Positions 1 through 55,184 of a stretch of 55,184 bases of DNA are shown in pieces. A program made the translations under genes and the position numbers. The stretch is from Candidatus Buchananbacteria bacterium. Lineage in GTDB: Bacteria > Patescibacteriota > Patescibacteriia > Buchananbacterales > UBA6539. Every line of letters starts with the position of its first letter. The stretch's first letter is position 1. The notes under the pieces were generated by a model. It did no database searches and was not told the DNA's origin. It was given only the letters and a program-made list of their open reading frames with translations. The DNA lies in assembly GCA_016930315.1 (NCBI GenBank), contig JAFGGX010000024.1, positions 1 through 55,184 on the forward strand, read 5' to 3'.

Positions 1-10
1 ATATTGAAGA

Positions 11-45
11 AGTCGCCTACGGCGACTCCTTAATTTTGAGATTTT
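11..45 (+). terminator. hairpin plus T-rich tail at window edge
   Basis: agtcgcc-tac-ggcgact stem-loop (11-27) followed by a T-rich tract. Probably ends a + strand unit that lies upstream of the window. Confidence 0.35.
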
Positions 46-64
46 ATTTTTAAAATTTAAGGTT

Positions 65-931
65 TTACTCAACTGGCATGTAAGAACTTGAATTCAAAAT
101 ATCAACTTCCGGCAAAATTAAATAAGTGGAAACCGACGGCAAGCTTTGTGTCCAATTAACCGACACGTCCCTAACTTCCCCAGCCTTCAACTGATCAACT
201 GCTAAATAATTAGCCGCGCCAATTCGTCCGCCATTCATCAAAATCATATAAACCCCAACCTGCCAATAACCGTAAGCGGTGTTATTAGCCAGTTTAAAAT
301 CCAAAGCGCTAACCGGCGCGCCATCTTTGCGGTTGCCCGAACTAGCCGCTTGAAATTTAATATCACTAACCGCAAAGTTTAATCGTGGAGTGGCAAAGTC
401 AGCAAAGCTTTCTGTTCGCTGCCAATTAACACTAACAAAAGAAACGTTACTACTATTTTGAGGAGCATCTTTTTCATTAAAAAACACTACATATTTATTT
501 TCGTTTGGATAAACAAAAGTTTCTTTTTGATCAATCACCTGCCCGGCATTTACCAACTGAACCGTCACTTTTTTAATAATCCAATTTTCATTACTATTTT
601 GTAAATTAACCACATAATCAACTCCTTCTGTGCCATTGGCTAATGGCGTAAAACTGACAATTTTTAAAGGTATAGGCTGATTGGCGGTTCTAAAATATGA
701 GTAATCAACCAAATTGGTAGAAAAACTATTTAACATTCGCAAATAATTTGGCTGTTCAAGAAAAAACATCACCGAGCTGCGAAAAATAATATAACTGTAA
801 AAAATAATGTTAAGCAAAATCAAACTCCCAATCAGAATTTTTCTCAACTGAAGTTTGTGAGTAACATACCAGTAACTGATTTTGAGTTTAAAATCAGATA
901 CTTGATCTGGAGAATTTATTTCGCTGGCCAT
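65..931 (-). CDS. hypothetical membrane-anchored protein (one N-terminal TM helix, large extracytoplasmic part)
   Basis: 288-aa ORF with backbone-like A/T-ending codons. Hydrophobic segment ILIGSLILLNIIFYSYIIF near the N-terminus. No catalytic motif recognised. Confidence 0.6.
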   Translation of the reverse strand: MASEINSPDQVSDFKLKISYWYVTHKLQLRKILIGSLILLNIIFYSYIIFRSSVMFFLEQPNYLRMLNSFSTNLVDYSYFRTANQPIPLKIVSFTPLANGTEGVDYVVNLQNSNENWIIKKVTVQLVNAGQVIDQKETFVYPNENKYVVFFNEKDAPQNSSNVSFVSVNWQRTESFADFATPRLNFAVSDIKFQAASSGNRKDGAPVSALDFKLANNTAYGYWQVGVYMILMNGGRIGAANYLAVDQLKAGEVRDVSVNWTQSLPSVSTYLILPEVDILNSSSYMPVE

Positions 932-970
932 AAAACAAATTTAACTATCTAAATTATAACATAAAATAAT

Positions 971-1014
971 AAAAAAAACACCGGAATGAACCCCACTTGA
1001 GGTAAACATTCCGG
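971..1014 (-). terminator. intrinsic terminator of the 1033..1443 gene
   Basis: ccggaatg (981-988) pairs with cattccgg (1007-1014). The A8 run at 971-978 is a U-run on the minus strand. Confidence 0.6.
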
Positions 1015-1032
1015 CGACCTCCCTGGTGACTG

Positions 1033-1443
1033 TCATTCAAAGATGACTTCAAATGCGAGACAGCCCAATGCACCAAAGACTCCTCCAACAACAAAAGTGC
1101 TAAGCAAGTCGATGACGGGAGCCTGGCTGATCGATTTATTTAAGGCCAAAGTCAAAAAAGCACAATCAGCCAAAAACCCAGCCAAACCAGCAACCGCCAA
1201 CACTCTGAAAAAAGAACAGTTTGGAGCAATAAAGCCCAACAGGGCTCTGGCGAGCAAGCAAATAACCACTCCGGTCAAACCAACGCAGAAAATTTCGCCG
1301 ACCGCCAAGCCGGGAATGAAAAAAATGCTGAGCAGGCCGTAATTATTCCTTAGACTGGCATAGAAAAGAAGGCCAAACAGCCCAAAAATCATACCACCAA
1401 GCCTCAACTCTCTTTCTGATGAACCCATTTTCTCTTCAGACAT
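1033..1443 (-). CDS. small polytopic membrane protein, orphan
   Basis: Start moved to the ATG at 1443 (MSEEKMGSSE...) because GAAGGAG lies 8 nt upstream. Several hydrophobic segments. Has its own promoter and terminator. GC looks intermediate between backbone and islands. Confidence 0.6.
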   Translation of the reverse strand: MSEEKMGSSERELRLGGMIFGLFGLLFYASLRNNYGLLSIFFIPGLAVGEIFCVGLTGVVICLLARALLGFIAPNCSFFRVLAVAGLAGFLADCAFLTLALNKSISQAPVIDLLSTFVVGGVFGALGCLAFEVIFE

Positions 1444-1484
1444 TTCACAGACTCCTTCAAAAAAGACTCGAGACATCCAAAAAC

Positions 1485-1550: not shown

Positions 1551-1604
1551 TTTAAGGTAAAAATTGACTTTAAATACTCCCCCATTTCACGGGTTTTTTC
1601 TTAA

Positions 1605-3659
<2,055 letters not shown>

Positions 3660-3734: not shown

Positions 3735-3891
3735 CCGTCGTGGGGGTTTGGGGGCAAGTGTCCGAGCCCAGCCGAACCCTTGGAATCGAAGCGGAAAGGG
3801 TGAGGCGGGTAAAAGACACAAACAATAAATGAGCGCTCGCGAGTCACGAGCCCCCAAAACTCTTTGTCCACTTTCTAGTTATAGAAAGTGG
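3735..3891 (+). ncRNA. unclassified GC-rich structured RNA element, copy 1 of 2
   Basis: Homologous to 12571-12726. Proposed helices: 3747-3755/3850-3858, 3758-3762/3815-3819 and 3771-3781/3796-3806, plus a terminal hairpin at 3868-3891. The helices are kept in copy 2 through compensatory changes. Confidence 0.55.
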
Positions 3892-4010: not shown

Positions 4011-4075
4011 CGATTATATAAATCAGCCCGTCAAAGGGCTTTTTAAAAACCTTTAATTTTTAGCTTAAATTAGCT

Positions 4076-4267
4076 ATGAATATCGCAAAGAGTATAACCG
4101 ACTACTTTATCGGTGCTCGCCAAGAGCTCAAAAAAGTAGTTTGGCCAAGCAAAAAAGAAGTCATCCAACACACCTCAATGGTAATTGCCATCAGTCTGGG
4201 CGTTGCTTTATTTTTAGGTGTGATCGTCGACTACACCTTAACTTTTTTCTTAAAATTCATCATCTAA
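4076..4267 (+). CDS. secE: preprotein translocase subunit SecE
   Basis: 63 aa. Motif ELKKVVWPSKKEV followed by one C-terminal TM helix. Conserved position just before nusG. Confidence 0.85.
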   Translation: MNIAKSITDYFIGARQELKKVVWPSKKEVIQHTSMVIAISLGVALFLGVIVDYTLTFFLKFII

Positions 4268-4280
4268 TAATTTTAAAACT

Positions 4281-4826
4281 ATGCCAAAACAAACAGTCCA
4301 ACGCGGCCGGCATTGGTATGTCATTCACACTTACTCTGGTTACGAAGAAAACGTCAAAAGAAACCTCGAACAGCGTATCGAATCAATGGATATGGAAGAT
4401 AAAATCTTTGCGGTTTTAATTCCGACCGAAAAAAAGATTAAAATCAAAAACGGCAAAAGAAAAGTAATTACTGAAAAAATTTTTCCCGGTTATGTGATGG
4501 TTGATATGATGGTTGACGACAATTCATGGTATGTAGTTAGAAACACCCCAAACGTTACCGGTTTTATTGGCTCAAGCACAACCCCAACTCCAGTTTCGGA
4601 AACAGAAATCAAATCTTTACAAAAAAGAATGGGCGTTGAAGAACCAACCTTTAAAATTGATGTGGTGGTTGGTGAAGCAGTCCGAATTAACGACGGTCCG
4701 TTCAAAAATTACGAAGGTAAAATCAGCGAGGTTGATGAAGCCCGCGGTAAAGTCAAAGTATTGGTTTCGATGTTTGGCCGCGAAACTCCGGTCGAATTGG
4801 ATTCTTTGCAAGTCAAAAAGCTGTAG
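4281..4826 (+). CDS. nusG: transcription termination/antitermination factor NusG
   Basis: 181 aa. NGN domain (WYVIHTYSGYE, FPGYVMV) and a C-terminal KOW domain (GPFKNYEGKISEVD...VLVSMFGRETPVEL). Confidence 0.93.
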   Translation: MPKQTVQRGRHWYVIHTYSGYEENVKRNLEQRIESMDMEDKIFAVLIPTEKKIKIKNGKRKVITEKIFPGYVMVDMMVDDNSWYVVRNTPNVTGFIGSSTTPTPVSETEIKSLQKRMGVEEPTFKIDVVVGEAVRINDGPFKNYEGKISEVDEARGKVKVLVSMFGRETPVELDSLQVKKL

Positions 4827-4832: not shown

Positions 4833-4939
4833 GAATTATGAGTTATGAGTTATGGTCAAAGAAACTAACCAATCTTAAACGACCATAATTCTTGCTTCTT
4901 AATTCTAAATTCATAATTCTTGCTTCTTAATTCTAAATT
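4833..4939 (+). repeat. imperfect long hairpin plus 2 x 28-bp perfect tandem repeat in the nusG-rplK spacer
   Basis: Left arm 4833-4857 pairs with 4881-4905, allowing G-U pairs. cataattcttgcttcttaattctaaatt occurs at 4884-4911 and again at 4912-4939. Confidence 0.7.
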
Positions 4940-4951
4940 CATAATAAATTT

Positions 4952-5377
4952 ATGGCTAAAAAAATTAAAACAGTAATTAAACTTCAGATTCCCGCCGGCG
5001 CTGCTAATCCAGCTCCTCCAGTTGGCCCAGCTTTAGGCCAACACGGCTTAAATATTGCTGAATTTTGCGCTAAATTCAATGACGCCACCAAAGATCAACG
5101 TGGTGATGTCGTACCAGTAGAAATTACCGTTTTCGAAGATCGAACTTATACTTTTATTACCAAAACCTCACCAGCTGCAAACTTACTAAAAAAAGCTGCG
5201 GGAATTGAAAAAGGTTCTGGTGAATCATTGAAGAAAAAAGTTGGTAAAGTTACTAAAGCTCAGGTTAAAGAAATCGCCGAAAAAAAGATGCCCGACTTAA
5301 ACGCCAAAAATATTGAAGGCGCGATGAGAATTATCGAGGGCACCGCCAGACAAATGGGCATCGAAGTAATTGAATAA
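4952..5377 (+). CDS. rplK: 50S ribosomal protein L11
   Basis: 141 aa. [26 protein letters not shown] is the canonical L11 N-terminal signature. Confidence 0.97.
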
Positions 5378-6367: not shown

Positions 6368-6440
6368 TGCGGGAGAGTGATTCCTAACTCTAAATAAACC
6401 GCGATCCGCCTACGCTAAAAGCTCCGGCGGACTAAAAGGA
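6368..6440 (+). promoter_or_regulatory. structured GC-rich leader upstream of rplA (candidate L1 autoregulatory site)
   Basis: Hairpins agagt...actct and tccgcc-N15-ggcgga lie directly before the weak RBS aaagga and the rplA ATG. Confidence 0.3.
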
Positions 6441-6447
6441 AAAAATT

Positions 6448-7128
6448 ATGAAACGTTCAAAACGTTATCAGGCCCTAAGCAAAAAAATCGACAAAACAAA
6501 AAGCTATCCCTTGTCGGAAGCCATCAAATTGGTTAAAGAAACCGGCACCACTAAATTTGTCAGCTCAATTGAAGTTCATATCAAAACCGGAATCGATGCC
6601 AATAAAACCGAGCAACAAATTCGGGGCTCAGTCTCTTTACCTAACGGTACCGGTAAAACAATTAGAATTGCCGCTTTTGTGCCAGACAGCAAAGAAAAAG
6701 AAGCTAAAGAAGCTGGCGCCGATTTGGTTGGCGGTGAAGCTTTAGTCGAAAGTATTAAAAAAACCGGGAAAATTGATTTTGATGTAGCCGTTACCACCCC
6801 GGACATGATGCCAAAATTAGCCGTGATTGCTAAAATTTTGGGACCAAGAGGTTTGATGCCATCACCAAAAAACGGCACTATTACTCCAAACCTAAAAAAG
6901 ACTATTGATGAATTAAAAAAAGGTAAAGTCAACTTCAAAAACGACAGCACCGGCAACCTTCACTTGGCAATTGGTAAAACCTCATTTGATGACCAAAAAA
7001 TCACTGAAAATATCGAGAGCTTCTTGGCGGCTTTAAAAAAAGCTAAGCCATCATCTGCCAAAGGCAATTTCATCAAATCAGTTACATTAGCCTCCTCAAT
7101 GGGCCCAGGCGTGAAAGTTCAACTATAG
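6448..7128 (+). CDS. rplA: 50S ribosomal protein L1
   Basis: 226 aa. Typical L1 blocks: MKRSKRY, FVSSIEVHIKTGID, GSVSLPNGTGK, LGPRGLMPSPKNGT. Confidence 0.96.
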   Translation: MKRSKRYQALSKKIDKTKSYPLSEAIKLVKETGTTKFVSSIEVHIKTGIDANKTEQQIRGSVSLPNGTGKTIRIAAFVPDSKEKEAKEAGADLVGGEALVESIKKTGKIDFDVAVTTPDMMPKLAVIAKILGPRGLMPSPKNGTITPNLKKTIDELKKGKVNFKNDSTGNLHLAIGKTSFDDQKITENIESFLAALKKAKPSSAKGNFIKSVTLASSMGPGVKVQL

Positions 7129-7227: not shown

Positions 7228-7256
7228 TTGACAAAACTACATAAATATGCTATTAT
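7228..7256 (+). promoter_or_regulatory. sigma70-like promoter of GC-rich unit 1
   Basis: TTGACA-N17-TATTAT with a TGC extended -10. Confidence 0.6.
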
Positions 7257-7290
7257 CTTAAGATTGTTCTTTAAAATTTTATTACGTCTA

Positions 7291-7348
7291 TCGATGGTTC
7301 TTTTTAGGGATGATTCATATTTGGGTTATCTCTAAAAAGAACCATCGA
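7291..7348 (+). promoter_or_regulatory. 17-bp perfect stem-loop in the long 5' leader of the 7419 gene
   Basis: tcgatggttctttttag (7291-7307) pairs perfectly with ctaaaaagaaccatcga (7332-7348). A second hairpin, gaagctt-aaa-agcttc, lies downstream. Confidence 0.55.
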
Positions 7349-7418
7349 AAAGGTGGTTTTAGAAGCTTAAAAGCTTCAATCCGGTTTCGGCTGGATAATT
7401 CCCCACAGGTGAAAAGAC

Positions 7419-8384
7419 ATGAAAAGCTACCGTTTCCTCCTCCTCATCGGAATCATCATCGCCGTGGCCACCATGGCCATGAGTCAGTCCACACCCCTCC
7501 CGCCCGAAAGCGACTTTGACTTCACCGTTGTTGTCCGTGACGGAACCAACAAAGGGACGAAAGTTCGCATCATCCGCGGGTCGGACACCGAACCGACCAT
7601 CATCACTGACAACGCCACGGGCGACATCGTCGTCATGACACCCTACTTCACACGTTGGGACTTGAATGACGTCGCCAAGCATGGCATCTTTCTGTACCCC
7701 CCGCCCCGTAAAACCCACCCAGAAAAACCCGGCACAGATCCGAAATGGGCCAATATTATCGAAGTAATCAAAAGCCTCGACAGTGCGGACGGGTTGACGT
7801 CCGCGTCAAGACTCCTACCGCTATTCGACCGGAGTAATGATCCCAAAGTCGTACTTCTCAGGCTGATCAACGCCTATGACTTCAGACTCAGCGCCGAGGT
7901 TTTCGATGTGATCCTCGCTTCTCCACTCTGTGACGGGGAGACTCTTCACGAGATTCTGAGAGTTCACGGAAAGACTGTGAACGAATACGGTGCCTGGATC
8001 GCCGGCAACAAAGCGGAGGCAGAGATCTTCGCCGACCCACGAATCAGGCTTCAGGATATCCTGAAGTATGGTCTCTGGCCTGGAAACCTGCTTCAATGGG
8101 GGGCGATATTGGAAATCTACCGTCGGGGAGATCCAGGGCTGCTCGAAGCCGCCATCAACGTAATGGCTGGCTTCCAAGGCGATGGCATCCCATACATCGC
8201 CTACGATCTACTGAGAAGCTCTCAGCTTCCCAGCCAGATCGCCAGGAAAGCCCTGACTATCAAGCCAGCGGACATTGAGCATGCCGACTACCAGGCGGCT
8301 CATATCCGAGATGCGATCAAGAATGGAATCGGCCTTGAGCAATTCGAGCCAACCCCCACGCCGGCCGTCACCACGATCGAATAA
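7419..8384 (+). CDS. GC-rich orphan secreted or membrane-anchored protein
   Basis: 321 aa. N-terminal signal/anchor MKSYRFLLLIGIIIAVATMAMS. AGGTGA lies 7 nt before the ATG. G/C-ending codons. No motif recognised. Confidence 0.7.
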   Translation: MKSYRFLLLIGIIIAVATMAMSQSTPLPPESDFDFTVVVRDGTNKGTKVRIIRGSDTEPTIITDNATGDIVVMTPYFTRWDLNDVAKHGIFLYPPPRKTHPEKPGTDPKWANIIEVIKSLDSADGLTSASRLLPLFDRSNDPKVVLLRLINAYDFRLSAEVFDVILASPLCDGETLHEILRVHGKTVNEYGAWIAGNKAEAEIFADPRIRLQDILKYGLWPGNLLQWGAILEIYRRGDPGLLEAAINVMAGFQGDGIPYIAYDLLRSSQLPSQIARKALTIKPADIEHADYQAAHIRDAIKNGIGLEQFEPTPTPAVTTIE

Positions 8385-8407
8385 CCACCACATTCCGCCC
8401 TTTCACT

Positions 8408-8466
8408 GTCCCGGCCGCGCGCAAGCAACTCAAACGTTGCACGCGACCGGGACTTCTACTTTTCTA
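8408..8466 (+). terminator. intrinsic terminator of unit 1
   Basis: gtcccgg (8408-8414) pairs with ccgggac (8447-8453), with inner pairing, followed by a T-rich tail. Confidence 0.55.
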
Positions 8467-8565
8467 GACCAAAATTGCTCCAAAAAACCATAAAATAATT
8501 GATTTGCCCCAGGGCATTTTTTTTGTTAAAATAAGGGGAGTAAAATTTACTCCTTTTATTTTTTT

Positions 8566-9105
8566 ATGGCAGAAGAACGCAAACACTATCGCCCTTCCTG
8601 GGACGATTATTTTATGGCAATTACCAAACTAATTGCCAGCCGCAGTACCTGTGATCGGCTCTATACCGGCGCAGTTTTAGTTAAAAATAACCGGATTATT
8701 TCTTCCGGTTACAATGGTTCAGCTCCAGGGCAGCCTCATTGCCTTGATTCCGGCCATTTAATGGAAGAAGGCCACTGTGTGCGCACCATCCACGGTGAGC
8801 ACAATGCTCTGCTCCAAGCCGCCGTTCAAGGTTCAACCAGCACAGTTGGCTCAACTATGTATACTAAATATAGCCCCTGCATCCACTGCACTAAGTACAT
8901 TATTGCTTGCGGCGTTAAACGAGTGGTTTTAGGTAAAATTTACCGCAATTCGCAAGCCGTGGACATGTTAAAAGCCAGTGGCGTTGAAGTTGATGTTTAT
9001 CAACCAAACCCTGAGTGGGAACAAGAAATTATCCAGATTTTTTCCGAAGATATTCCTGACCGAAAAAACGAAGGTGATGTCAAAATGGAGGTAAAAAATG
9101 GGTAA
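8566..9105 (+). CDS. comEB: dCMP deaminase (ComEB family)
   Basis: 179 aa. Zinc motifs HGEHNA and PCIHCTK. Confidence 0.9.
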   Translation: MAEERKHYRPSWDDYFMAITKLIASRSTCDRLYTGAVLVKNNRIISSGYNGSAPGQPHCLDSGHLMEEGHCVRTIHGEHNALLQAAVQGSTSTVGSTMYTKYSPCIHCTKYIIACGVKRVVLGKIYRNSQAVDMLKASGVEVDVYQPNPEWEQEIIQIFSEDIPDRKNEGDVKMEVKNG

Positions 9106-9655
9106 AAAAATTATTTTTGGCTTGGTGGGTCAAATCGCTTCGGGCAAAGACACTGTTGCTGATTATTTAGAAAAAAAATATCAAGCCAAAAGAATCAGTT
9201 TTTCGGGCATGTTGCGCGATATCCTCAATCGTCTATTTCTACCAATCAATCGCAAAAATCTAGTGGCCACTTCCGAAATAATTCGAAAACAATTTGGTCA
9301 AGACCTGATGGCTAAAGTAATTGCTGAAGAGGTAAAAAAATCTGACGCCAAAATCATTTGTCTGCCTAATATTCGGCGCAATCAAGATATTAAATATTTA
9401 TCAAAAATTCCCGGTTTTATTTTGGTCCACATTACCGCTGAGCCAAAAATTAGATACCAAAGATTAATAAACCGCCGTGAAAATATTGATGATAAAAACA
9501 AAACTTGGGCCCAATTTATCCGCGACAGCAAATTACCAACCGAAGTAACGATTAAACAAGTAGCCAAAAAAGCTAAATACACAATTGACAATAACGGCAG
9601 CTTAAACGAACTTCACGAACAAGTCGAAAAAATTCTAAAAAAACACAAAAAATAA
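9098..9655 (+). CDS. P-loop nucleotide kinase (CoaE / dNMP-kinase-like)
   Basis: 185 aa. Walker A motif GLVGQIASGKDT. Overlaps comEB by 8 nt and dut by 1 nt (TAATG), so it is translationally coupled inside the dTTP operon. Confidence 0.6.
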   Translation: MGKKIIFGLVGQIASGKDTVADYLEKKYQAKRISFSGMLRDILNRLFLPINRKNLVATSEIIRKQFGQDLMAKVIAEEVKKSDAKIICLPNIRRNQDIKYLSKIPGFILVHITAEPKIRYQRLINRRENIDDKNKTWAQFIRDSKLPTEVTIKQVAKKAKYTIDNNGSLNELHEQVEKILKKHKK

Positions 9656-10080: not shown

Positions 10081-10104
10081 TCCTAATATTTTTAACCTAA
10101 GACT

Positions 10105-12769: not shown

Positions 12770-12777
12770 ACTTATAT

Positions 12778-42486: not shown

Positions 42487-43875
<1,389 letters not shown>

Positions 43876-44300: not shown

Positions 44301-44331
44301 GCCGATTCTAATCATCAAAAAGGATTAACCT

Positions 44332-45907: not shown

Positions 45908-46425
45908 TATAAAAAAGACTGAGCGTGCCGCAATAACGCCGGTAACAACGGCGCTAAAACCGCTCCCATTTGCATCAACCAAAATGCTACCTTTGAACCA
46001 ATGATTACTCCGCTAAACCAATCCGAAAAAGGAATCTGCAAAATAAAATATAAACTTAAACCTAAAACTAACGTTCCTTCAACAAATCCAAATAGCGCAC
46101 CCAAAACGCGGTTAATCGTTTTAGTAAAAGGAATAATTGAAATTAAATTAAAAATTTTACCAATAATCCAAAAAGCTAGGCCAGTTAAGCGATTAACTAA
46201 AACAAAAATTAAAATAAAAGCTACCACCTTGGCTGTGTTGGCATGACCAAACATCAATGGCGTTAACCAGTCAGCAAAAGGCAAATAATATAACCCCGCC
46301 AACCAAGTGCCTAAAACTGCGCCAATCAACGCCCCTAAAGCTTGGATCAAGCCCAAGGCAAAGCCAAAAGCAATAAACAAAAACAAAAGCAGAATTAAAA
46401 CCAGGTCGAAAATCGTTAAATACAT
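45907..46425 (-). CDS. cvpA: CvpA family membrane protein
   Basis: 172 aa with 4-5 TM segments. N-terminus IFDLVLILLLFLFIAFGFALGLI is typical of CvpA. Confidence 0.65.
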   Translation of the reverse strand: MYLTIFDLVLILLLFLFIAFGFALGLIQALGALIGAVLGTWLAGLYYLPFADWLTPLMFGHANTAKVVAFILIFVLVNRLTGLAFWIIGKIFNLISIIPFTKTINRVLGALFGFVEGTLVLGLSLYFILQIPFSDWFSGVIIGSKVAFWLMQMGAVLAPLLPALLRHAQSFL

Positions 46426-46440: not shown

Positions 46441-47895
46441 TTATTTGAGCCTTGGGAATAGGGCTTCTACTTTTTTAATTTTTTTAGCTTCAAAAATTTT
46501 CTGAATCTTTTCGGCTGTTTCCGGCAAATAAGGTATCAGCATTTCACCAACCAACAAGATATCAGCGACGGCGTTAGTCAAAACTTCGCTGAGCCGATCG
46601 GCTTGGCCATTTTTAGCCAGCTCCCACGGCTTATTTTCTGAAATATCACCATCAACTTTACTAATCAGCGACCAAATAAATTTTAACTGCTCATCAAACC
46701 TAAATTCATCAATCTGATTAAATTCTTTTTTAATATTAACCTGAGTGTCTTTCTTAGCTTGACTAACTTTTTTCCAGTCGATTTTTAAGTCATTTTGTTC
46801 AATTAAACCGCTGACCCGACTGACTAAATTACCCAAACCGTTGGCCAAGTCGGCGTTATAGGCTTCAACAAATTTCTGATCGCTAAAATCACCATCTCGG
46901 AAAGGATTAATGTGCCGCAATAAATAATAACGAGTCGCTTCGGCCCCATATTTTTCAATCACTAAAAACGGATCAACCACATTACCTAATGATTTAGACA
47001 TCTTTGTTCCATCAACGTTGATATATTCGTGGACAAAAAGCGTTTTTGGCAACGACAAATTGGCTGACATCAACATTGCCGGCCAATAAATTGCATGAAA
47101 ACGAATAATACCTTTACCAATGGCGTGAACATCCGCTGGCCAATACTTTTTAAATCTTCTGCCTTCAGAATCATAATCCAAACCAGTAATATAGTTACTC
47201 AAAGCATCATACCAAACATACATCACTTGTGATTCATCGCCAGGCACTGGCACACCCCAATTTCTGGCTCGAGCTTGTGAGCGAGAAATTGAAAAATCTT
47301 CCAAACCGCTACGGATAAAACTCAACACCTCGTTTTTGCGAGTTTCCGGTACAATTTTATACTCATCGCTGCTGATTAACTTTTCTAATCTGTCTTGATA
47401 ATTTGAAAGCTTAAAAAAATAATTTTCTTCTTCAACCACTTCCGGTTCTTTTAAATGTTCCGGACATTTACCATCAACCAATTCTTTTTCGGTATAAAAC
47501 TGCTCACAACCAACGCAATAAAGGCCTTTGTAGCTTTTTTTATAAATATCATCTTGATTGCTGGCTGACCAAAGTTTTTGCGAACCGACAAAATGTTTTT
47601 TAGAAGTGGTGCGGATAAAGTCTTCATTAGAAATATTTAAGGCTTTGGTTAAATCGACAAACCGCTGACTGTTTTGATCGACAAATTTTCTGGTTTCAAT
47701 CCCGGCTTTTTCAGCCGCTTGAACATTTTTTAAACTATTCTCATCAACGCCGGTTAAGAAAAAAACATCATCGCCCAACTGACGATGAATCCTGGCTAAG
47801 GCATCGGCCTGAACCAATTCTAAAGCAAAGCCAATGTGTGGATTAGCATTAACATAAGGAATAGCGGTTGTAATATAAAATTTTTTCATTGACAT
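46441..47895 (-). CDS. metG: methionine-tRNA ligase (short form)
   Basis: 484 aa. PYVNANPHIGF (HIGH motif) and KMSKS. Confidence 0.95.
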   Translation of the reverse strand: MSMKKFYITTAIPYVNANPHIGFALELVQADALARIHRQLGDDVFFLTGVDENSLKNVQAAEKAGIETRKFVDQNSQRFVDLTKALNISNEDFIRTTSKKHFVGSQKLWSASNQDDIYKKSYKGLYCVGCEQFYTEKELVDGKCPEHLKEPEVVEEENYFFKLSNYQDRLEKLISSDEYKIVPETRKNEVLSFIRSGLEDFSISRSQARARNWGVPVPGDESQVMYVWYDALSNYITGLDYDSEGRRFKKYWPADVHAIGKGIIRFHAIYWPAMLMSANLSLPKTLFVHEYINVDGTKMSKSLGNVVDPFLVIEKYGAEATRYYLLRHINPFRDGDFSDQKFVEAYNADLANGLGNLVSRVSGLIEQNDLKIDWKKVSQAKKDTQVNIKKEFNQIDEFRFDEQLKFIWSLISKVDGDISENKPWELAKNGQADRLSEVLTNAVADILLVGEMLIPYLPETAEKIQKIFEAKKIKKVEALFPRLK

Positions 47896-47953
47896 AATAT
47901 ATTTTTCGTGATAATTTGGTGATAAATCTTATTCTGAAAGGGGGCTAGCGATT

Positions 47954-48211
47954 GTGAGCAGAGCAACTGAAGACCGTTTAGTAGTAGTTGTAGGAGAACG
48001 AAGTATAACAGATTGTATTAAACGGCTAAACCGACTCAGCAAAGATGCCGGCATTCTAGGTGGCAAAAGAACAAAGGGGCCACGCCATCAGACCAGAAGT
48101 CAAAAACGCCGGAATAAAGACTACAGAGCCAGAAAACGCGTGGAACTTCGTAAACGAAAAACAAATCAGGCCAAAAACAGAAGAGATAAAGGAGGGAAAA
48201 CATCTCCTTGA
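47954..48211 (+). CDS. rpsU: 30S ribosomal protein bS21-like
   Basis: 85 aa with a GTG start. GAAAGGGGG lies 9 nt upstream. ITDCIKRLNRLSKDAGIL...RHQTRSQKRRNK aligns with the bS21 core FDVALRRFKRSCEKAGVL...EKPTTERKRAKA. Confidence 0.65.
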   Translation: MSRATEDRLVVVVGERSITDCIKRLNRLSKDAGILGGKRTKGPRHQTRSQKRRNKDYRARKRVELRKRKTNQAKNRRDKGGKTSP

Positions 48212-48249
48212 TGACGGGTAAAACAACCTACAAACGTCAGCAAGGTTTC

Positions 48250-48285
48250 GCAGGAACCGGTTACGGTTCCTGCTTTCCTTTTATC
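48250..48285 (+). terminator. strong hairpin terminator (bidirectional, shared with rsmI)
   Basis: gcaggaaccg-gtta-cggttcctgc followed by tttccttttat. Confidence 0.7.
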
Positions 48286-49210: not shown

Positions 49211-50788
49211 CTAAAAACTTTTTCGTCGTAAAAGCCGATTGTAGGTGATGGCGAAACGATGCGCTTCATCTCTGATTTTTTGGACTAATTTCAAAGCATC
49301 AGATTTACGGTCTAATTTGATTGATTCGGAATTACCAGGCCGGTAAATTTCTTCTTGTTTTTTAGCCAAAGCCGCAATCGGAATAGTTAAACCTAATGAT
49401 CGTAAGGCCGCCAGCCCAGCACTCATCTGCGGTTTGCCGCCATCAATTAAAATTAAATCTGGCAAATCAGCTTTATCAATTTTCAATCGGTAATACCGCC
49501 GATAAATAATTTCGCGCATGGCATCAAAATCAGATTGGCCCGTCTGCCATTTAATTTTAAACCGCCGATAATTATTTTTGTCTGGCAAACCATCTTTAAA
49601 GCAAACCATCGAACCAACAATAAAACTGTCACCCAAATTAGAAACATCAAAACATTCAATCACCGTCGGCAGCTTTGGTAAACTCAAACTCTCCTGCAAT
49701 TCAAACAAAGCACTGTCGCCTCTTTTCAAACTAACTAAAATATTTTTTTTGACTAATTCTAAAAGCTGCAAATTGGTCCCGCGCTTAGCCATTTTAATCC
49801 GGACTTTTCTGCCAGCCAAGCGAGTTAAATAACTTTCAATTGTAGTTTTTTCCGGCAACTCAACAGGCGCCACCACTTCTTGCGGTAATTCATGACTGTA
49901 ATAATATTGTTTAACAAAACCGGCTAATAATTCCGGCAAATCTTGTTTGATTGATATGGCAAAAGAAAACTGTTTCCGACCAGAAACCACGCCTTTGTTG
50001 ATATTAAACAACTGAACAATAAATTTATTCGCGGTGATTATGCCATTAATTACATCTTGATCGTAATTTTTTTTGAGGTGAATCTTTTGTTCCGATTGTA
50101 AATTAACCAACGCTTTAATTTGATCGCGTCGTAATTTTGCTAGTTCATATTTTTCTTGACTAGAAAACTGGTCCATTTCTTTTTTTAAATCAACAATTAA
50201 CTTCTCGACCTTTCCTTGCAATAGCATCCGCGCCCGATCTAAGTCTTTTTTATATTCTTCCAAACTAATAATCCGCGTCCAGGGAGGAACCGAACACTTA
50301 ATTTTATATTTACCGGCAACGGCCTGAGGTTTAGTTTTGCCCACTCGCAACTTAAACAAAGTATTAGCCAGTCTGATTAAATTTCTTCTAGCTGTACCCC
50401 AAACATAAGGGCCATAAACTTCGTCTTTGTTTTTAAAAATTCGTACCGTTTCTAATCGCGGAAATAGTTCATTAGTAACTTTAATGTAAGCGTAACGCAC
50501 TCCACCTTTTAGCTCCAGATTATATTGTGGCTGCTGATCCTTAATTAGTCGCGCTTCTAAAAGTAAAGCTTCAACTTCCGAATCAGTGACAATGTAATCT
50601 AGGTTTTTAATTTTACTAACCAGCTGCTTGGTCTTGGGATCAACAATATTTTTATTGAAATATGAGCTGACTCGTTTTTTTAAATCTTTTGCTTTGCCAA
50701 TATAAATAATCTCATCGGCTCTATTTTTGAATAAATAGCAACCAGGGTGATTGGGTAAATTTCTTATTTTTTCTTTGACTATTGACAT
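49211..50788 (-). CDS. uvrC: excinuclease ABC subunit C
   Basis: Start set at the ATG at 50788 (MSIVKEKIRNLP...) rather than the TTG at 50797. GIY-YIG N-terminus (GCYLFKN...IIYIGKAKDLKKR) and a C-terminal endonuclease domain. Confidence 0.93.
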   Translation of the reverse strand: MSIVKEKIRNLPNHPGCYLFKNRADEIIYIGKAKDLKKRVSSYFNKNIVDPKTKQLVSKIKNLDYIVTDSEVEALLLEARLIKDQQPQYNLELKGGVRYAYIKVTNELFPRLETVRIFKNKDEVYGPYVWGTARRNLIRLANTLFKLRVGKTKPQAVAGKYKIKCSVPPWTRIISLEEYKKDLDRARMLLQGKVEKLIVDLKKEMDQFSSQEKYELAKLRRDQIKALVNLQSEQKIHLKKNYDQDVINGIITANKFIVQLFNINKGVVSGRKQFSFAISIKQDLPELLAGFVKQYYYSHELPQEVVAPVELPEKTTIESYLTRLAGRKVRIKMAKRGTNLQLLELVKKNILVSLKRGDSALFELQESLSLPKLPTVIECFDVSNLGDSFIVGSMVCFKDGLPDKNNYRRFKIKWQTGQSDFDAMREIIYRRYYRLKIDKADLPDLILIDGGKPQMSAGLAALRSLGLTIPIAALAKKQEEIYRPGNSESIKLDRKSDALKLVQKIRDEAHRFAITYNRLLRRKSF

Positions 50789-50815
50789 TTTAAACAAAAT
50801 ATAATATAAAATATA
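50778..50815 (+). repeat. 38-bp perfect direct repeat, copy 1 (uvrC start codon plus + strand promoter)
   Basis: actattgacattttaaacaaaatataatataaaatata. The + strand reads TTGACA (50782-50787)-N17-TATAAA. Confidence 0.9.
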
Positions 50816-50836
50816 TAATATTCCACTTCCACAAGG

Positions 50837-51028
50837 ATGGCAAAGATGGATAAACCGCTCTTTTTACCGTACGACGCATCAGGCACAACATACCAAGATG
50901 CCAACTATGAATTCTGCACCGACTGTAGCAGTTCGATTCACGAAAACCCGCAAACTAAATCACATACTTGCTGCCTTAATCTATCTTTTCGACCAGATCA
51001 CAGACCGATGAGAAATCACGACCTTTAA
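50837..51028 (+). CDS. GC-rich orphan mini-protein (63 aa; alternative start 50846)
   Basis: AAGGA is correctly spaced for the second ATG at 50846. Contains CTDC...HTCC. Promoter and terminator flank it. Confidence 0.5.
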   Translation: MAKMDKPLFLPYDASGTTYQDANYEFCTDCSSSIHENPQTKSHTCCLNLSFRPDHRPMRNHDL

Positions 51029-51173: not shown

Positions 51174-51211
51174 ACTATTGACATTTTAAACAAAATATAA
51201 TATAAAATATA
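51174..51211 (+). repeat. 38-bp perfect direct repeat, copy 2 (promoter of the next cassette)
   Basis: Identical to 50778-50815. TTGACA at 51178-51183. Confidence 0.9.
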
Positions 51212-51238
51212 CAACCAATCCACTGGAGGTACATACGC

Positions 51239-51472
51239 ATGGGAACTAAAGACGGTCTTCCATCCTATGGCGACGATAAAAACGAAGGGCTATTACGCAT
51301 GGGAACTAAAGAGTCTTATCCATCTTGTAAACCCAAGCCGTCGAAAGAAAGTCCCGTTGAAAGGCGCCCATACCCCGAAGATAAGAGCAATGGAATGTGC
51401 TCAGGATGCGGAGCATTTCTCGATAATGAAGGTTTCTGTCACTTCTGTAACCCAAATGGCTGGCTTCGCTAA
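51239..51472 (+). CDS. GC-rich orphan mini-protein with a C-terminal zinc-ribbon-like CxxC...CxxC
   Basis: 77 aa. GGAGG lies 9 nt upstream. CSGCGAFLDNEGFCHFC. The N-terminus has an internal 60-nt duplication that includes the start codon. Confidence 0.55.
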   Translation: MGTKDGLPSYGDDKNEGLLRMGTKESYPSCKPKPSKESPVERRPYPEDKSNGMCSGCGAFLDNEGFCHFCNPNGWLR

Positions 51473-51523
51473 TTGGCAAATTTCCGCCGACCCACATTCT
51501 TCTTGGTGACAAGCGGAACCCCA

Positions 51524-51566
51524 GAGCCCTCGCGCGACCCTGATTCGCGCTTGGGCTCCTTTTTTA
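51524..51566 (+). terminator. intrinsic terminator abutting the uvrA stop
   Basis: gagccc...cgcgcga-ccctgat-tcgcgc...gggctc followed by cttttttat. Confidence 0.65.
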
Positions 51567-54437
51567 TTTCTTTAAAACTACACTCAAGTACTTACCAGTA
51601 TAAGACCACTTGGCACATTTAGCAATTTTTTCCGGCGTACCTTCGGCTACCACTCGCCCACCTTTGTCCCCGCCCTCTAGGCCTAAATCAACAATCCAAT
51701 CGGCAGATTTAATCACATCTAAATTGTGTTCAATTACCAAAACCGAATTACCTTTATCAACCAACCGATTAAAAACTTCCACTAATCTGCTGACATCGTC
51801 AAAATGCAATCCCGTTGTCGGCTCATCCAAAATATATAGCGCATTGCCGGCCTTACGCGACAACTCGGAAGTCAGCTTAATTCGCTGAGCTTCACCACCC
51901 GACAAAGTAGTGGCGCTTTGACCCAACTGAATGTAATCCAAACCGACATCAAAAAGAGTTTGCATCTTATGAGCGATGGCTGGGACATTTTTGAAAAATT
52001 CTAGCGCTTCTTCCACGGTCATTTTCAATACATCGGCAATCGTTCTATTTTTGTATTTAATACTTAAAGTTTCTTCGTTGTATCTGGTTCCTTTGCAACG
52101 CTGACATTCAATATAAACATCGGGCAAAAAATTCATCTCAATTTTTTTCACCCCATCGCCTTCGCATTCTTCGCACCGGCCGCCGCTGACATTAAAACTA
52201 AACCGACCCGGCTTATAACCACGCGCCCGGGCTTCTTTAGTGGACGAAAACAACTCCCGAATCTGAGTAAACACTCCAATGTAAGTGGCCGGATTTGACC
52301 GCGGTGTTCTGCCAATCGGCGACTGATCAACCATAATTACTTTTTCTAGCTTGCCATAACCTTTAATATTTTTGTGCTGACCTGGCCGCTCGCTGGTAGC
52401 ATAAAAAATCTTGTGCAAGGCCCGATACAAAATGTCATCGATTAAAGTCGACTTGCCCGAACCAGAAACACCGGTCACACAAGTTAAAACTTTCAATGGA
52501 ATTTTAACATCAATATTTTTTAAGTTATGTTGCTCAGCGCCAAAAATTTCCAGCCAATCAAAAATTCGCCGTCGATTTTCCGGAATAGCAATCTTTTTTT
52601 TGCCCGAAATATACTGACTGGTCAAAGAATTTTTGGCGCTGGCTAACTGCTTTGGCGTACCAGCAAAAATCAATTCCCCACCGTGCCGGCCAGCCCCAGG
52701 TCCTAAATCAACCACATGATCAGCTTCTAAAATAGTTTCTTCGTCGTGCTCAACCACTACCACAGTATTACCTAAATCACGCAATTGCTTTAAAGTGGCA
52801 ATCAATTTCTGGTTATCTCTTTGATGCAACCCAATTGACGGCTCATCTAAAATATACAACACGCCGCGCAATTCTGAACCAATTTGAGTAGCCAAGCGAA
52901 TCCGCTGAGCTTCCCCACCCGACAAACTACCGGCCGGACGATTTAAAGTTAAATAATCAAGCCCAACATTAATCAAAAAATTCAACCGATTGGTAATTTC
53001 TTTTAAAATTAAATTGGCAATTGCCAACTGTTCTGTATTCAACTTTAAGCTCTTAAAAAAAGCCACCAACTGTTCAATAGACATTTCGGCCACTTCCCAA
53101 ATATTATAACCATTATCAACTTCTTTTTTAGTTTTAATCTTTTTATTTCCCAATGTCACCGCTAAAATTTCTGGTCGAAATCTTTTGCCTTGGCAGGCCG
53201 GACATGGGCCCATGCGCATAAATTTGGCAATTTCATTTCGTCGATATTCGGATTCAGTTTGTTTATAAAGCCGATCCAGTTGTGGAATTACTCCTTCAAA
53301 TGTGCCCACATATTGATAGCTGCTGTTGCCACTACGACTGCCAATTTCAAACTTCATCTGCTTGTCGCTGCCAAACAAAATTATGTCTTTAATATTCCGC
53401 GGTAAATCATTCCAAGCTAAATTTAAATCAAACTTATAATGCTGGGCCAATGATTCCAAATGCTGATAGCGCCAACCTTCTCCATAGCTACGCCAAGGCT
53501 TGACTGCACCCTGAGCCACCGACAAACTTTTATCCGGCACAATTAAATCTTCATCAAATTCTTGCGAAAACCCCAAACCATGACAAGCCTCACAAGCGCC
53601 AAACGGCGAATTAAACGAAAACATCCGCGGCTGCAGTTCACCAATTGAAATATCGCAATCAGTACAGGCGTTGGCTTGGGAAAACATTTTTTCTTTTTCA
53701 TCAATCAAAACCAAAACCAACCCGTCAGCCAAATTGACGGCCGTTTCAACTGCTTCGTTTAGTCTGGATTTATTTTTAGTTTCCACTGGCAAGCGATCAA
53801 TAATAATTTCCAAATTATGCTTAATCTGCTTGTTAAGTTTAATTGTTTGCCAATCAGCCAATTGATAAACCTGACCATCAACTCGAACCCGAGCATAACC
53901 TTGATTGTGCCAATCTTTCAATAATTGTTCATAAGTGCCTTTCTTGGCTCTGACTACCGGTGCTAAAATTTGTAACTTAGCGCCTTTTTTTAAACTCAAC
54001 AAATTTTTAACAATTGATTCAACCGACTGAAAACTAATCTTTTTACCGCAGTTCGGACAATGGGGCGTGCCAACCCGAGCGTAAAGCAAACGCAAATAAT
54101 CGGCAATTTCGGTAATGGTGCCAACCGTTGACCGCGGATTTTTGGAAACCGATTTTTGTTCAATCGAAATGGCCGGAGACAAACCGGAAATCGAATCAAC
54201 GTCAGGTTTGTTCATCAAACCCAAAAACTGCCGCGCATAGGCTGACAAACTTTCAACGTAGCGTCTTTGTCCTTCGGCATAAAGGGTATCGAACGCCAAA
54301 GTCGATTTACCCGACCCAGACAACCCGGTGATAACTGTTAACTTATCAATTGGAATATCGACATTGATATTTTTTAGGTTATGCTGTCGAGCGCCCTTAA
54401 TTTTAATATATTGTTTTTTATTATTTGCCATATCCAT
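51564..54437 (-). CDS. uvrA: excinuclease ABC subunit A
   Basis: 957 aa. Two ABC ATPase modules (GLSGSGKST, GVSGSGKST, LSGGEAQR twice) and zinc-finger Cys clusters. Confidence 0.97.
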   Translation of the reverse strand: MDMANNKKQYIKIKGARQHNLKNINVDIPIDKLTVITGLSGSGKSTLAFDTLYAEGQRRYVESLSAYARQFLGLMNKPDVDSISGLSPAISIEQKSVSKNPRSTVGTITEIADYLRLLYARVGTPHCPNCGKKISFQSVESIVKNLLSLKKGAKLQILAPVVRAKKGTYEQLLKDWHNQGYARVRVDGQVYQLADWQTIKLNKQIKHNLEIIIDRLPVETKNKSRLNEAVETAVNLADGLVLVLIDEKEKMFSQANACTDCDISIGELQPRMFSFNSPFGACEACHGLGFSQEFDEDLIVPDKSLSVAQGAVKPWRSYGEGWRYQHLESLAQHYKFDLNLAWNDLPRNIKDIILFGSDKQMKFEIGSRSGNSSYQYVGTFEGVIPQLDRLYKQTESEYRRNEIAKFMRMGPCPACQGKRFRPEILAVTLGNKKIKTKKEVDNGYNIWEVAEMSIEQLVAFFKSLKLNTEQLAIANLILKEITNRLNFLINVGLDYLTLNRPAGSLSGGEAQRIRLATQIGSELRGVLYILDEPSIGLHQRDNQKLIATLKQLRDLGNTVVVVEHDEETILEADHVVDLGPGAGRHGGELIFAGTPKQLASAKNSLTSQYISGKKKIAIPENRRRIFDWLEIFGAEQHNLKNIDVKIPLKVLTCVTGVSGSGKSTLIDDILYRALHKIFYATSERPGQHKNIKGYGKLEKVIMVDQSPIGRTPRSNPATYIGVFTQIRELFSSTKEARARGYKPGRFSFNVSGGRCEECEGDGVKKIEMNFLPDVYIECQRCKGTRYNEETLSIKYKNRTIADVLKMTVEEALEFFKNVPAIAHKMQTLFDVGLDYIQLGQSATTLSGGEAQRIKLTSELSRKAGNALYILDEPTTGLHFDDVSRLVEVFNRLVDKGNSVLVIEHNLDVIKSADWIVDLGLEGGDKGGRVVAEGTPEKIAKCAKWSYTGKYLSVVLKK

Positions 54438-54451
54438 ATTTTAGTTAATTT

Positions 54452-54480
54452 ATAATAGTACTCAATATGTTATTTATCAA
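54452..54480 (-). promoter_or_regulatory. promoter of uvrA (short, SD-less leader)
   Basis: Minus strand reads TTGATA-N17-TATTAT. The ATG lies 14 nt after the -10. Confidence 0.5.
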
Positions 54481-55032
54481 CAACTCCTTAAATTTTTAGC
54501 TTATTTCGGTGAGGCCATCTACGAAAACCGGATCAACCAGGGCTTGACCCAGGATCAGTTCGGTCACAAGTATGACATCTCCGGACCCGCGGTCTTCAAG
54601 TTCGAAAAAGGGTACGTGAAACCCTCGCTCGACTTGTGGCTCAAGATGTCCGCGGACTTCAAGATCCCGGAGAAAACCGCCGTCCTGATGTGGCTGAAGA
54701 CCCGCCTGCCCGAAAAGTACCAGAACCTGATCCAGATCAAGAACCCGCAAGCGGAGGCCGAGATCCCCGAAGCCGTCCGCCCCAGCCCCCGAGCCGTGGA
54801 CTACACCAAGTTCGAGGACCGCAAGGAGATGCGCAAGGTTGCCAACAACGACCGCAAACTCCCCAAAGGACTCCGCGAGTTCCTCAAGGACGACGAAATC
54901 TGGGTGATCTACAAGCCGACCGGTGCGGAAATCAACTTCCTCCGCGACGCCTTCGGCAAACTCGGCCAGGGCTCGATCGATGCCTTCCGCGAGGCCCTGC
55001 GGGCCATGCGAAGCTTCAAGACCGAAAAGTAG
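54467..55032 (+). CDS. GC-rich XRE-family HTH protein; the intact reading frame needs a -1 shift or a 1-nt indel at 54490-54497
   Basis: The HTH (FGEAIYENRINQGLTQDQFGHKYDISGPAVFKFEKGYVKPSLDLWLKMS) starts at about 54505 with no in-frame ATG/GTG/TTG upstream. The TTG at 54544 would delete helix 1. The ATG at 54467 is in the +1 frame and runs into A_AAT_TTT_TAG. Confidence 0.5.
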
Positions 55033-55071
55033 CCAGATCGGCTACCGCTACCAAAAAGGTGGCCCATCTTT

Positions 55072-55121
55072 CCCCCAGGACTAACTGCGACACGTTGCAG
55101 TGGTTCTGGGGGCTTTTTTTA
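55072..55121 (+). terminator. intrinsic terminator
   Basis: cccccag (55072-55078) pairs with ctggggg (55106-55112), with an inner hairpin, followed by T7. Confidence 0.7.
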
Positions 55122-55184
55122 TTTACATTTTTTTAATCTTTTAAATTTCTGAATTTATTAATTAATTTTTTAATTATTTTAGCC

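Follow-up and report, generated by a model that had tools for sequence, protein, structure and literature searches.

Two modes of translation initiation, native and accessory, in a small-genome groundwater Patescibacterium

Contig JAFGGX010000024.1, a stretch of 55,184 bp with a GC content of 40.8% (hereafter the window, meaning this whole stretch), comes from a small-genome groundwater bacterium of the Patescibacteria (Candidate Phyla Radiation, CPR), and its genes start translation in two different ways. Native core genes lack a Shine-Dalgarno (SD) element ahead of the start codon, whereas a set of accessory genes, many of them GC-rich, carries one. This split in initiation mode between native and accessory genes is real: it withstood controls for base composition and for the choice of start codons. 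It had been proposed in an initial annotation made from the letters of the window.

Native starts lack, and accessory starts carry, an SD

SD strength was scored with RNAduplex by pairing positions -20 to -1 of each start with 5'-GAUCACCUCCUUUCU-3', an anti-SD that may not be this organism's own 16S tail, and cut-offs were placed at <= -6 and <= -8 kcal/mol. The SD-led set comprised 14 starts, 13 listed in the initial annotation and one (44332) added here, and the backbone set comprised 41. SD-led starts scored from -6.0 to -17.8 kcal/mol, 14/14 being <= -6 and 12/14 <= -8. By comparison, 36 of the 41 backbone starts were above -6, that is, SD-less, with 5 at <= -6 and 4 at <= -8 (Mann-Whitney p=3e-7). 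The gap from SD to start codon (ATG or GTG) was 4-9 nt at 12 of the 14 SD-led starts and 0-3 nt at 35017.

Random ATGs taken as a control reached <= -8 in 7.6% of cases in backbone sequence and 14.5% in island sequence. Thus the SD rate of the backbone equals chance and island starts lie far above it. The SD-led start was the first ATG of its open reading frame (ORF) in 12/14 cases, and a conservative start-choice test, which admitted every start codon of an ORF's 5' half, gave P=0.0015. Together, the random-ATG control and this test ruled out artefacts of composition and of start choice.

All 13 starts of GC-rich genes that had been credited with an SD do exist and have an SD-like element, and the 16 core genes named as SD-less all score between +1.3 and -2.0 kcal/mol. 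These include tmk and uvrC, scored at their true ATGs (11882 and 50788). Two statements needed tempering. The signal was said to be independent of base composition, which holds in part, as GC-richness doubles the chance rate of SD matches. GC-rich genes were said almost all to carry an SD, which fits the 13 listed but not a GC-rich HTH_3 ORF (54460-55032), and several of the listed ORFs are barely GC-rich (20677, 39%; 50846, 43%; 47954, 44%).

The split recurs in related loci

The survey covered 126 related loci and 1770 ORFs, called crudely (first ATG, greedy ORF selection). Genes of typical GC content had an SD (<= -8) in 8-12% of cases, as often as ATGs inside these genes (ratio 0.9-1.2). 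Where a gene exceeded its locus by 7 GC points or more, the share was 44-46%, against 14% expected (Fisher odds ratio 7.5, p=1.5e-16). It peaked (55%) when GC was raised both at the first two codon positions (GC12) and at the third (GC3); high GC3 or high GC12 alone gave little.

Core starts fixed by alignment to the window proteins had an SD in only 0-7% of cases (nusG, 3% of 30 loci; rplK, 7% of 28; pheS, 0/21; addA, 0/14). In relatives at 55-59% GC, core genes were still SD-less, with C/A-rich, G-poor leaders. This indicated that GC-richness alone does not force SD use, and that the origin of a gene explains the split better than GC alone.

Accessory genes are inserted, turn over and keep their SD

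The relatives of GyrB were Patescibacteria without exception, the top one being L001 among the related loci L001-L132 (78% identity, gene order kept); a look-up of the exact GyrB protein gave no match. Relative to L001, the 7419 ORF is an insertion, the rplA-comEB gap being 1438 bp here and 164 bp there, and the junction of this unit was found again in an independent Logan assembly. Likewise, the 47954 ORF is inserted between rsmI and metG, a gap of 89 bp in L087, which is probably one and the same contig as L001, and of 14 bp in L088. The tatD/addA and addA/h30211 slots hold different GC-rich SD-led genes from relative to relative (CoA-transferase, GFO/IDH/MocA oxidoreductase, HAD hydrolase, AMP-binding enzyme, ORFs without detectable homologue, or ORFans); in L087 and L088, other GC-rich SD-led ORFs occupy addA/h30211. 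Most of the GC-rich ORFs of relatives have no Pfam family; those with a match are for the most part enzymes of accessory metabolism, several of which have to do with nucleotides.

The SD itself was conserved. CoA-transferase orthologues had it in 4/4 genomes, and a GC-rich ORF of 160/175 aa (L087:13518-14000 and L088:13914-14441, both on the minus strand) in 2/2, its two copies being 26% identical against 64-70% for flanking genes. The pyr cassettes described below kept their SD in L084, L089 and L092 within otherwise diverged leaders. Because orthologous GC-rich genes keep the SD inside leaders that have otherwise diverged, it appears to be selected in the recipients, which argues that these hosts would read the SD rather than carry it just as a donor relic. 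Very fast evolution of the GC-rich accessory class may explain its ORFan status.

Organization of the SD-led units

The units follow one plan. An AT-rich sigma-70-like promoter and a leader precede the SD and the ORF, and a GC-rich hairpin plus T-run comes last. Promoter-like sites and hairpins alike are pattern matches, the former being the best in the window (10-11/12 to consensus). Large SD-led ORFs have 50-55% GC and a GC3 of 0.54-0.66, against 40.8% and ~0.35 for the host, and most SD-led ORFs are ORFans. Besides the pyr operon, the following were recorded (energies in kcal/mol):

7228-8465, plus strand: 7419 unit, with promoter-like TTGACA-17-TATTAT (7228-7256), a ~160-nt leader with a hairpin, and SD CAGGTGAA at 7406-7413 (AGGTGA; -8.4)
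7419-8384, plus strand: ORF of that unit, 321 aa, 55% GC, GC3 0.66, signal-peptide-like N-terminus, followed by a terminator-like hairpin at ~8410-8465
1033-1458, minus strand: ORF 1033-1443, 136 aa, membrane-like, 46% GC, with SD GAAGGAG at 1452-1458 (-11.8)
11482-11822, minus strand: ORF 11482-11802 between thyX and tmk, 106 aa with a transmembrane segment and an acidic tail, 53% GC; SD GGAAAGGAGGG at 11812-11822 (-16.5)
20200-20577, plus strand: 20270 unit, with promoter-like TTGTCA-17-TATAAT (20200-20228), SD CGGAAAGGTGGTGAA at 20250-20264 (-17.8), ORF 20270-20470 (66 aa) and a terminator-like hairpin at ~20550-20577
20609-21043, plus strand: 20677 unit, with promoter-like TTGACA-17-TACGAT (20609-20637), SD TGGAGGC at 20666-20672 (-9.3), ORF 20677-20964 (95-aa transmembrane protein, only 39% GC) and a terminator at 21022-21043
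30840-31636, plus strand: ORF 30853-31590 in the addA/h30211 slot, 245 aa, 52% GC, GC3 0.60, no family; SD TAGGAGGC at 30840-30847 (-10.2), terminator at 31609-31636
34831-35293, minus strand: two small basic ORFs, the first being 35090-35275 (61 aa) with SD TAGAAAGGAG at 35284-35293 (-13.5); terminator at 34831-34864
34901-35017, minus strand: the second small basic ORF, 38 aa, with SD GGAAGGAAAGGTGA at 35021-35034 (-17.3)
44318-44802, plus strand: carbonic-anhydrase-like ORF 44332-44802, 156 aa, 50% GC, with weak SD AAAAGGAT at 44318-44325 (-6.0)
47935-48273, plus strand: GTG-start ORF 47954-48211, 85 aa, very basic, with SD TGAAAGGGGGC at 47935-47945 (-14.7) and a terminator at 48250-48273
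50778-51028, plus strand: 50846 unit, with copy 1 of a 41-nt promoter (50778-50818), weak SD CAAGGATGGC at 50832-50841 (-7.4) and ORF 50846-51028 (60 aa, Cys-containing)
51174-51560, plus strand: 51239 unit, with copy 2 of the 41-nt promoter (51174-51214), SD TGGAGGTA at 51224-51231 (-10.7), ORF 51239-51472 (77 aa, CxxC motifs) and a terminator-like hairpin at ~51521-51560
54460-55032, plus strand: HTH_3 (XRE-type) ORF, the counter-example, 58% GC, no SD (-4.9); the first canonical start (TTG 54544) lies 9 codons into its domain

The 7419 protein had no homologue among 5.8e9 proteins, searches with the 47954 ORF likewise gave none, and ORF 1033-1443 had none among 132 related loci. In L090, L093 and L117, too, addA has small SD-led ORFs upstream of it whose products are basic and Cys-rich. 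A phage origin of the units was considered and rejected: the 7419 and 30853 ORFs gave no phage or viral match in a tblastn search against phages and an IMG/VR scan, and none of the ten SD-led ORFs searched had a PHROG family. The GC-rich islands were likewise rejected as RNA genes, no tRNA and no Rfam match at gathering threshold being found in them.

The promoter in front of the two small Cys-containing ORFs (50846 and 51239) is doubled at 98% identity, and ORF 51239-51472 holds an internal 31-nt repeat (51234-51264 and 51294-51324). As for the HTH_3 ORF, its GC-rich composition sets in within the reading frame (~54505); either its 5' end was cut off at an insertion junction or its translation begins at a non-canonical codon.

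The pyrE-like/pyrF cassette

Two SD-led genes, both of 52-54% GC, could be assigned to families, and both assignments are solid by profile match:

35488-37320, minus strand: pyrE-like/pyrF operon, with promoter-like TTGACT-17-TAATCT at 37292-37320
36436-37218, minus strand: pyrE-like ORF, 260 aa (phosphoribosyltransferase; pyrE_Therm, 1e-8), with SD AGAAAGGTAGGA at 37227-37238 (-12.2)
35488-36363, minus strand: type-2 pyrF, 291 aa (pyrF_sub2, 5e-55), with SD CGGAAAGGAGT at 36371-36381 (-12.9)

In the leader (~37232-37290, minus strand), the SD-like AAGGAGGG forms the 5' arm of a hairpin that is followed by a U-run. Hairpin, U-run and TTGACT promoter are conserved in the cassettes of relatives (L084 at ~130-175, L089, L092), and the leader looks like a transcription attenuator for the cassette.

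PyrF of the window is 40-45% identical to proteobacterial PyrF, its nearest named relatives being from Burkholderiales and Xanthomonadales, and resembles copies in a CPR context to much the same degree (38-57%). Homologous pyrE-like/pyrF pairs lie directly upstream of addA in L089, L090, L091 and L092, whose AddA is 57-63% identical to that of the window, and a further cassette was found in L084, a Rifle groundwater scaffold. Thus the pair is not a recent private insertion, as it stands upstream of addA in several relatives. The cassettes are GC-rich everywhere, for instance 47-48% in the 33% GC locus L089.

Context of the native starts

Core genes are tightly packed in the window, which holds gyrB, secE-nusG-rplK-rplA, a dCMP deaminase gene, dut, a thyX-like gene, tmk, gatB, miaA and thrS, as well as dnaE, pheST, an AddA/UvrD-type helicase-nuclease gene, the F-ATPase operon, tatD, cvpA, metG, rsmI and uvrCA. 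SD-less starts were as follows (energies in kcal/mol):

1594-1616, plus strand: gyrB, A/T-rich, +0.2
4056-4283, plus strand: secE (+1.3) and nusG (-0.7)
4932-4954, plus strand: rplK, -0.3
8546-8568, plus strand: comEB, +0.6
10085-10107, plus strand: thyX, -0.4
11862-11884, plus strand: tmk at its true ATG, -1.3
12758-12780, plus strand: gatB, -0.3
25826-25848, minus strand: dnaE, -1.5; orthologues with SD, 0/5
28610-28632, minus strand: pheT, -1.3; orthologues with SD, 0/8
34769-34791, minus strand: addA/UvrD-type helicase-nuclease gene, -1.2, adjoining the GC-rich SD-led block
39078-42492, plus strand: atpF (-1.3), atpH (-0.1), atpA (-1.0), atpG (-2.2) and atpD (-0.7)
47893-47915, minus strand: metG, -2.0
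50786-50808, minus strand: uvrC at its true ATG, +1.0
54435-54457, minus strand: uvrA, +1.3

These starts share a signature: A makes up 50-68% at -16 to -4, G is almost absent, and U occupies -1 in 80% of cases, against 3/14 in the SD-led class (Fisher p=1e-4). The same signature was found in 168 ortholog-anchored starts of the related loci, with U(-1) at 90% in relatives of at least 50% GC. This U(-1), G-poor context is a strong non-SD start context. The predicted fold of -30 to +30 is -4.3 kcal/mol for native and -9.0 kcal/mol for SD-led starts (p=1e-6). At native starts (e.g. 1613, 4951 and 39097, and the 168 orthologous ones) we also noticed that G is nearly missing from -13 to -1 and that C is common at the second position of codon 2.

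Between 14316 and 15632 lie four successive AT-rich small ORFs (88-118 aa) with native-type SD-less starts and no homologues in relatives. Lineage-specific genes are therefore not all SD-led.

Native genes with an SD

The initial annotation had named atpE as the clear exception among core genes and rplA as weak. Both stand, at -8.8 and -6.2 kcal/mol, but three more AT-rich native genes with an SD had been overlooked, namely the 9098 kinase, 25911-26219 and cvpA:

9078-9655, plus strand: nucleotide-kinase gene (start 9098), AT-rich, 35% GC, with SD TGGAGGTA (GGAGG; -10.7)
25911-26239, minus strand: AT-rich gene for a 102-aa membrane protein (ORF 25911-26219, h25911), with SD TAAGGAGGC (AAGGAGG; -11.1), missing in 7/7 orthologues of relatives
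38762-38994, plus strand: atpE (c subunit), with SD AAAAGGAGT, the rest of the atp operon being SD-less; its orthologues have an SD in L116 and none in L109
45907-46445, minus strand: cvpA-family gene (ORF 45907-46425), 38% GC, with SD TAAAGGAGGC (core element AAAGGAGG; -12.0)
6428-7128, plus strand: rplA, with weak AAAAGGAA, the same element being present in L001

Since native atpE and cvpA have SDs, the host probably reads this element.

rpsU and a possible bS21

The product of the 47954 ORF is possibly a divergent bS21, judging from its sequence: it gave weak matches to Pfam S21 (22.5 bits, below the 27-bit cut-off) and to Bacillus subtilis bS21 (BLASTP, 35% over 52 aa). No support came from NCBIfam, a word search of 5.8e9 proteins, a phmmer search of 1.8e9, hhalign or a custom S21 hidden Markov model. 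With -14.7 kcal/mol, this ORF is the only candidate in the window for an rpsU with extended SD.

In CPR loci of Peribacteria and Gracilibacteria type, rpsU (Pfam S21) lies downstream of gyrB and has an extended SD, e.g. GAAAGGAGGTG, of -14 to -21 kcal/mol:

L031:10772-10978, L034:11971-12177, L047:8402-8608, L049:3247-3453, L057:5544-5750, L068:12618-12830 and L071:13424-13636, and also L048, L051 and L052: rpsU with extended SD

Such an SD, taken as <= -13 kcal/mol, was found in 10 of 13 loci of these types, with 0-1 other SD ORFs per locus. An rpsU whose extended SD is the strongest of the genome is the signature of autoregulation in Bacteroidota (McNutt et al. 2023, PMC9976891). Its occurrence in related CPR loci suggests that bS21 autoregulation may exist beyond Bacteroidota. 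A second S21 subgroup (L036, L044, L045, L061, L067) has no SD; the C-rich motif CTCCCTTA(A)CC, itself similar to the 3' tail of 16S rRNA, is conserved ~10-20 nt before its start.

Other repeats and elements

A repeat search of the window returned only the duplicated 41-nt promoter and an unrelated 85-nt repeat, and no repeat shared by the units. The latter is a direct repeat (3807-3891 and 12642-12726, 89% identical) whose copies, upstream of secE and of gatB, both end in a terminator-like hairpin. Matched neither in Rfam nor in the 132 related loci, it could be a mobile element or a small RNA. The window as a whole contains no tRNA gene and no Rfam family at gathering threshold, relaxed searches yielding weak matches only. 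One of these, at 20014-20167 (minus strand), resembles a T-box leader (31.5 bits, E=0.003, far under gathering), with a strong promoter-like site (20206-20177) on one side of it and the GNAT-thrS genes on the other.

Between pheS and pheT (region 28623-29166) lies a PF05635 gene (28667-29026; '23S rRNA intervening sequence protein', Avd-like) with 42-nt inverted and 35-nt tandem repeats at its flanks. Among the relatives only L094 shares it, which makes a small mobile insertion probable, one of the native type (AT-rich and SD-less).

Discussion

The reading that we favour, with a probability of roughly 0.6, is a native SD-independent regime to which acquired, self-contained units of SD type have been added and kept functional. 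Native genes would initiate without SD pairing, from short, G-poor, A/U-rich, weakly structured start regions with U at -1. The accessory genes, which vary between lineages, look foreign, are GC-rich at all codon positions and are mostly ORFans together with the pyrE-like/pyrF pair, most likely came by horizontal transfer into recurrent intergenic slots. Each would be a stand-alone unit with a strong, often extended SD (of GAAAGGAGG type) and mostly a 4-9 nt spacer, a start region brought along in transfer and presumably still usable by the host ribosome. Selection would retain the SD because the accessory leaders are more structured, contain G and are without the native signal. The dichotomy with its controls, the insertion and turnover of accessory genes, the clade-wide association and the conserved SD of orthologues are results; a foreign origin of the ORFans and SD/anti-SD pairing in this organism are what we infer from them.

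Several observations weigh against this reading. Six small SD-led ORFs have a native-like GC3, and the HTH_3 ORF is GC-rich without an SD. The pyrE-like/pyrF pair sits at the same locus in relatives with 57-63% identical AddA, yet is 10-14 GC points above the genome, an offset whose persistence simple transfer followed by amelioration does not explain and whose reason can be given only conjecturally. No donor was found for any ORFan, and the window has neither mobility genes nor att sites, nor flanking repeats common to the units. The surveyed loci are phylogenetically non-independent and their gene calls crude. Lastly, no 16S rRNA 3' end was found in the window or in the 132 related loci.

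Alternatively, the SDs might be passive relics of recent transfers from SD-using, GC-richer donors, left over and unused while host-type promoters drive expression. We hold this to be unlikely. It would suit the ORFan and insertion status of the genes, their foreign-like composition, the chance-level SD of native genes and the lack of conservation of the h25911 SD in relatives. However, SDs last in diverged orthologues while the leader around them diverges, spacing is 4-9 nt at 12/14 starts, the pyr cassette carries its own promoter and leader, and native atpE and cvpA have SDs. The same facts bear on the initial annotation, which saw cassettes with a donor-type ribosome binding site under host-type promoters. 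A distinct accessory class does exist by composition and evolution, but its SD is not merely kept, since it is retained in diverged orthologues, and the host-type promoters had to be given up, the pyr promoter and leader being kept together with the cassette and a sigma-70 consensus being assignable to neither host nor donor. Nor do all genes fall in line with it, some SD-led ORFs having a native-like GC3 and some native genes an SD. As a whole, that interpretation is partly supported.

To the same small degree, a Bacteroidia-like arrangement might account for the data. By analogy, the default ribosome would hide its anti-SD and SD-led mRNAs would be read mainly by a bS21-less sub-population, the accessory set being conditional or largely muted. 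The native SD rate is exactly at chance and the upstream signature A-rich, as in Bacteroidia according to published reports; rpsU of Peribacteria and Gracilibacteria type has its extended SD of -14 to -21 kcal/mol; and the window has a strongly SD-led ORF for a basic, possibly bS21-like protein. Yet the rpsU signature belongs to other CPR classes and not to the window's own lineage, four tests left the S21 identity of the window ORF unsupported, and a count of ~17 SD-led genes over 55 kb, with atpE and the metabolic pyr operon among them, is unlike the single-gene Flavobacterium case. A bolder form of this analogy, in which this branch of Patescibacteria would run SD-blind ribosomes by default and gate its SD-led accessory genes translationally, leaving them to ribosomes with a free anti-SD (e.g. 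bS21-less ones), is a speculation that we rate slightly lower still. If true, gated reading would be a filter at the level of translation on horizontally acquired genes, with the extended SD of rpsU as its regulatory core.

A purely physical compensation, whereby an SD would be required by any mRNA that is GC-rich and prone to structure, irrespective of origin, but not by AT-rich mRNA, appears distinctly improbable. The stabler predicted fold of SD-led starts (-9.0 vs -4.3 kcal/mol, p=1e-6) and the general principle that genes without an SD depend on an unstructured start speak for it, but several SD-led ORFs of the window are not GC-rich, and as a sole cause it is weakened by the SD-less core genes of relatives at 55-59% GC and by the low enrichment when only GC3 or only GC12 is high. 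Finally, an artefact, made of chance SD motifs in G-richer DNA with starts picked after them or of chimeric or non-coding islands, is largely refuted and barely credible: islands do double chance matches (14.5% vs 7.6%) and many listed ORFs are short and without homologues, but 12/14 starts are first ATGs, the conservative test gave P=0.0015, one junction recurs in an independent assembly, the pattern recurs in 126 other loci, the pyrF and pyrE-like assignments are solid, and the islands have no tRNA or Rfam matches.

Comparison with known systems

SD-poor phyla, loss of the anti-SD in some Parcubacteria and moron-like acquired units are already known. The literature searched did not describe a native/accessory split of initiation mode inside a single genome that recurs across a CPR clade. 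Such a split allows accessory or acquired genes of CPR genomes to be marked from sequence alone, and gene callers trained on a single ribosome-binding-site model will set wrong starts in one class or the other. It also raises testable questions on the expression of foreign genes in uncultivated bacteria with reduced genomes.

In Bacteroidia and Chlorobia, initiation is SD-independent and rpsU bears an SD, as described by Jha et al. (2021, PMC7797042) and McNutt et al. (2023, PMC9976891). In a regime of this type the 16S rRNA keeps its anti-SD, which bS21, bS18 and bS6 sequester. The likeness lies in the native SD at chance level, the A-rich upstream region and, in related CPR loci, rpsU being almost the sole SD-led gene. 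The present case differs in phylum, in that U at -1 is the strongest positional signal and the exact A positions depart from those published, and in that the window has many SD-led genes rather than one; anti-SD occlusion is putative here, and the window's own lineage did not show the rpsU signature.

Within CPR, the anti-SD motif is lost in part of the Parcubacteria, a loss linked to lineages that lack uL1 (Tsurumaki et al. 2022, PMC9297842). Both cases depart from canonical SD/anti-SD use. However, theirs concerns an rRNA motif in uL1-lacking lineages, whereas in the window uL1 (rplA) is present, the SDs look selected and the dichotomy, not described there, is on the mRNA side.

SD-less genes reportedly need an unstructured start region, accessibility being said by Scharff and colleagues in 2011 to be the determinant. 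SD-less native starts are indeed predicted to be far less structured than SD-led ones, but structure alone is insufficient, since GC-rich relatives keep SD-less core genes.

Integron arrays consist of promoterless cassettes with attC sites and an integrase. They resemble the units in holding small, variable and often ORFan genes in arrays or slots. Integron cassettes were rejected: the units have no attC-like repeat in common, each bears a promoter-like site of its own, and none of the annotated ORFs encodes an integrase.

Phage morons are similar in layout; as Juhala and Hendrix reportedly described them in 2000, they are single ORFs of atypical composition, each with its own promoter and terminator, between conserved genes. 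The units described here likewise consist of one or two genes of atypical GC between a sigma-70-like promoter and an intrinsic terminator, and are missing or replaced at the same site in close relatives; the 7419 and 47954 units are absent there, the exception being pyrE-like/pyrF in L089, L090, L091 and L092. They differ from morons in that they lie in the chromosome of a cellular CPR host and not in a prophage and have no phage or PHROG similarity, and in that their distinguishing mark is the initiation signal.

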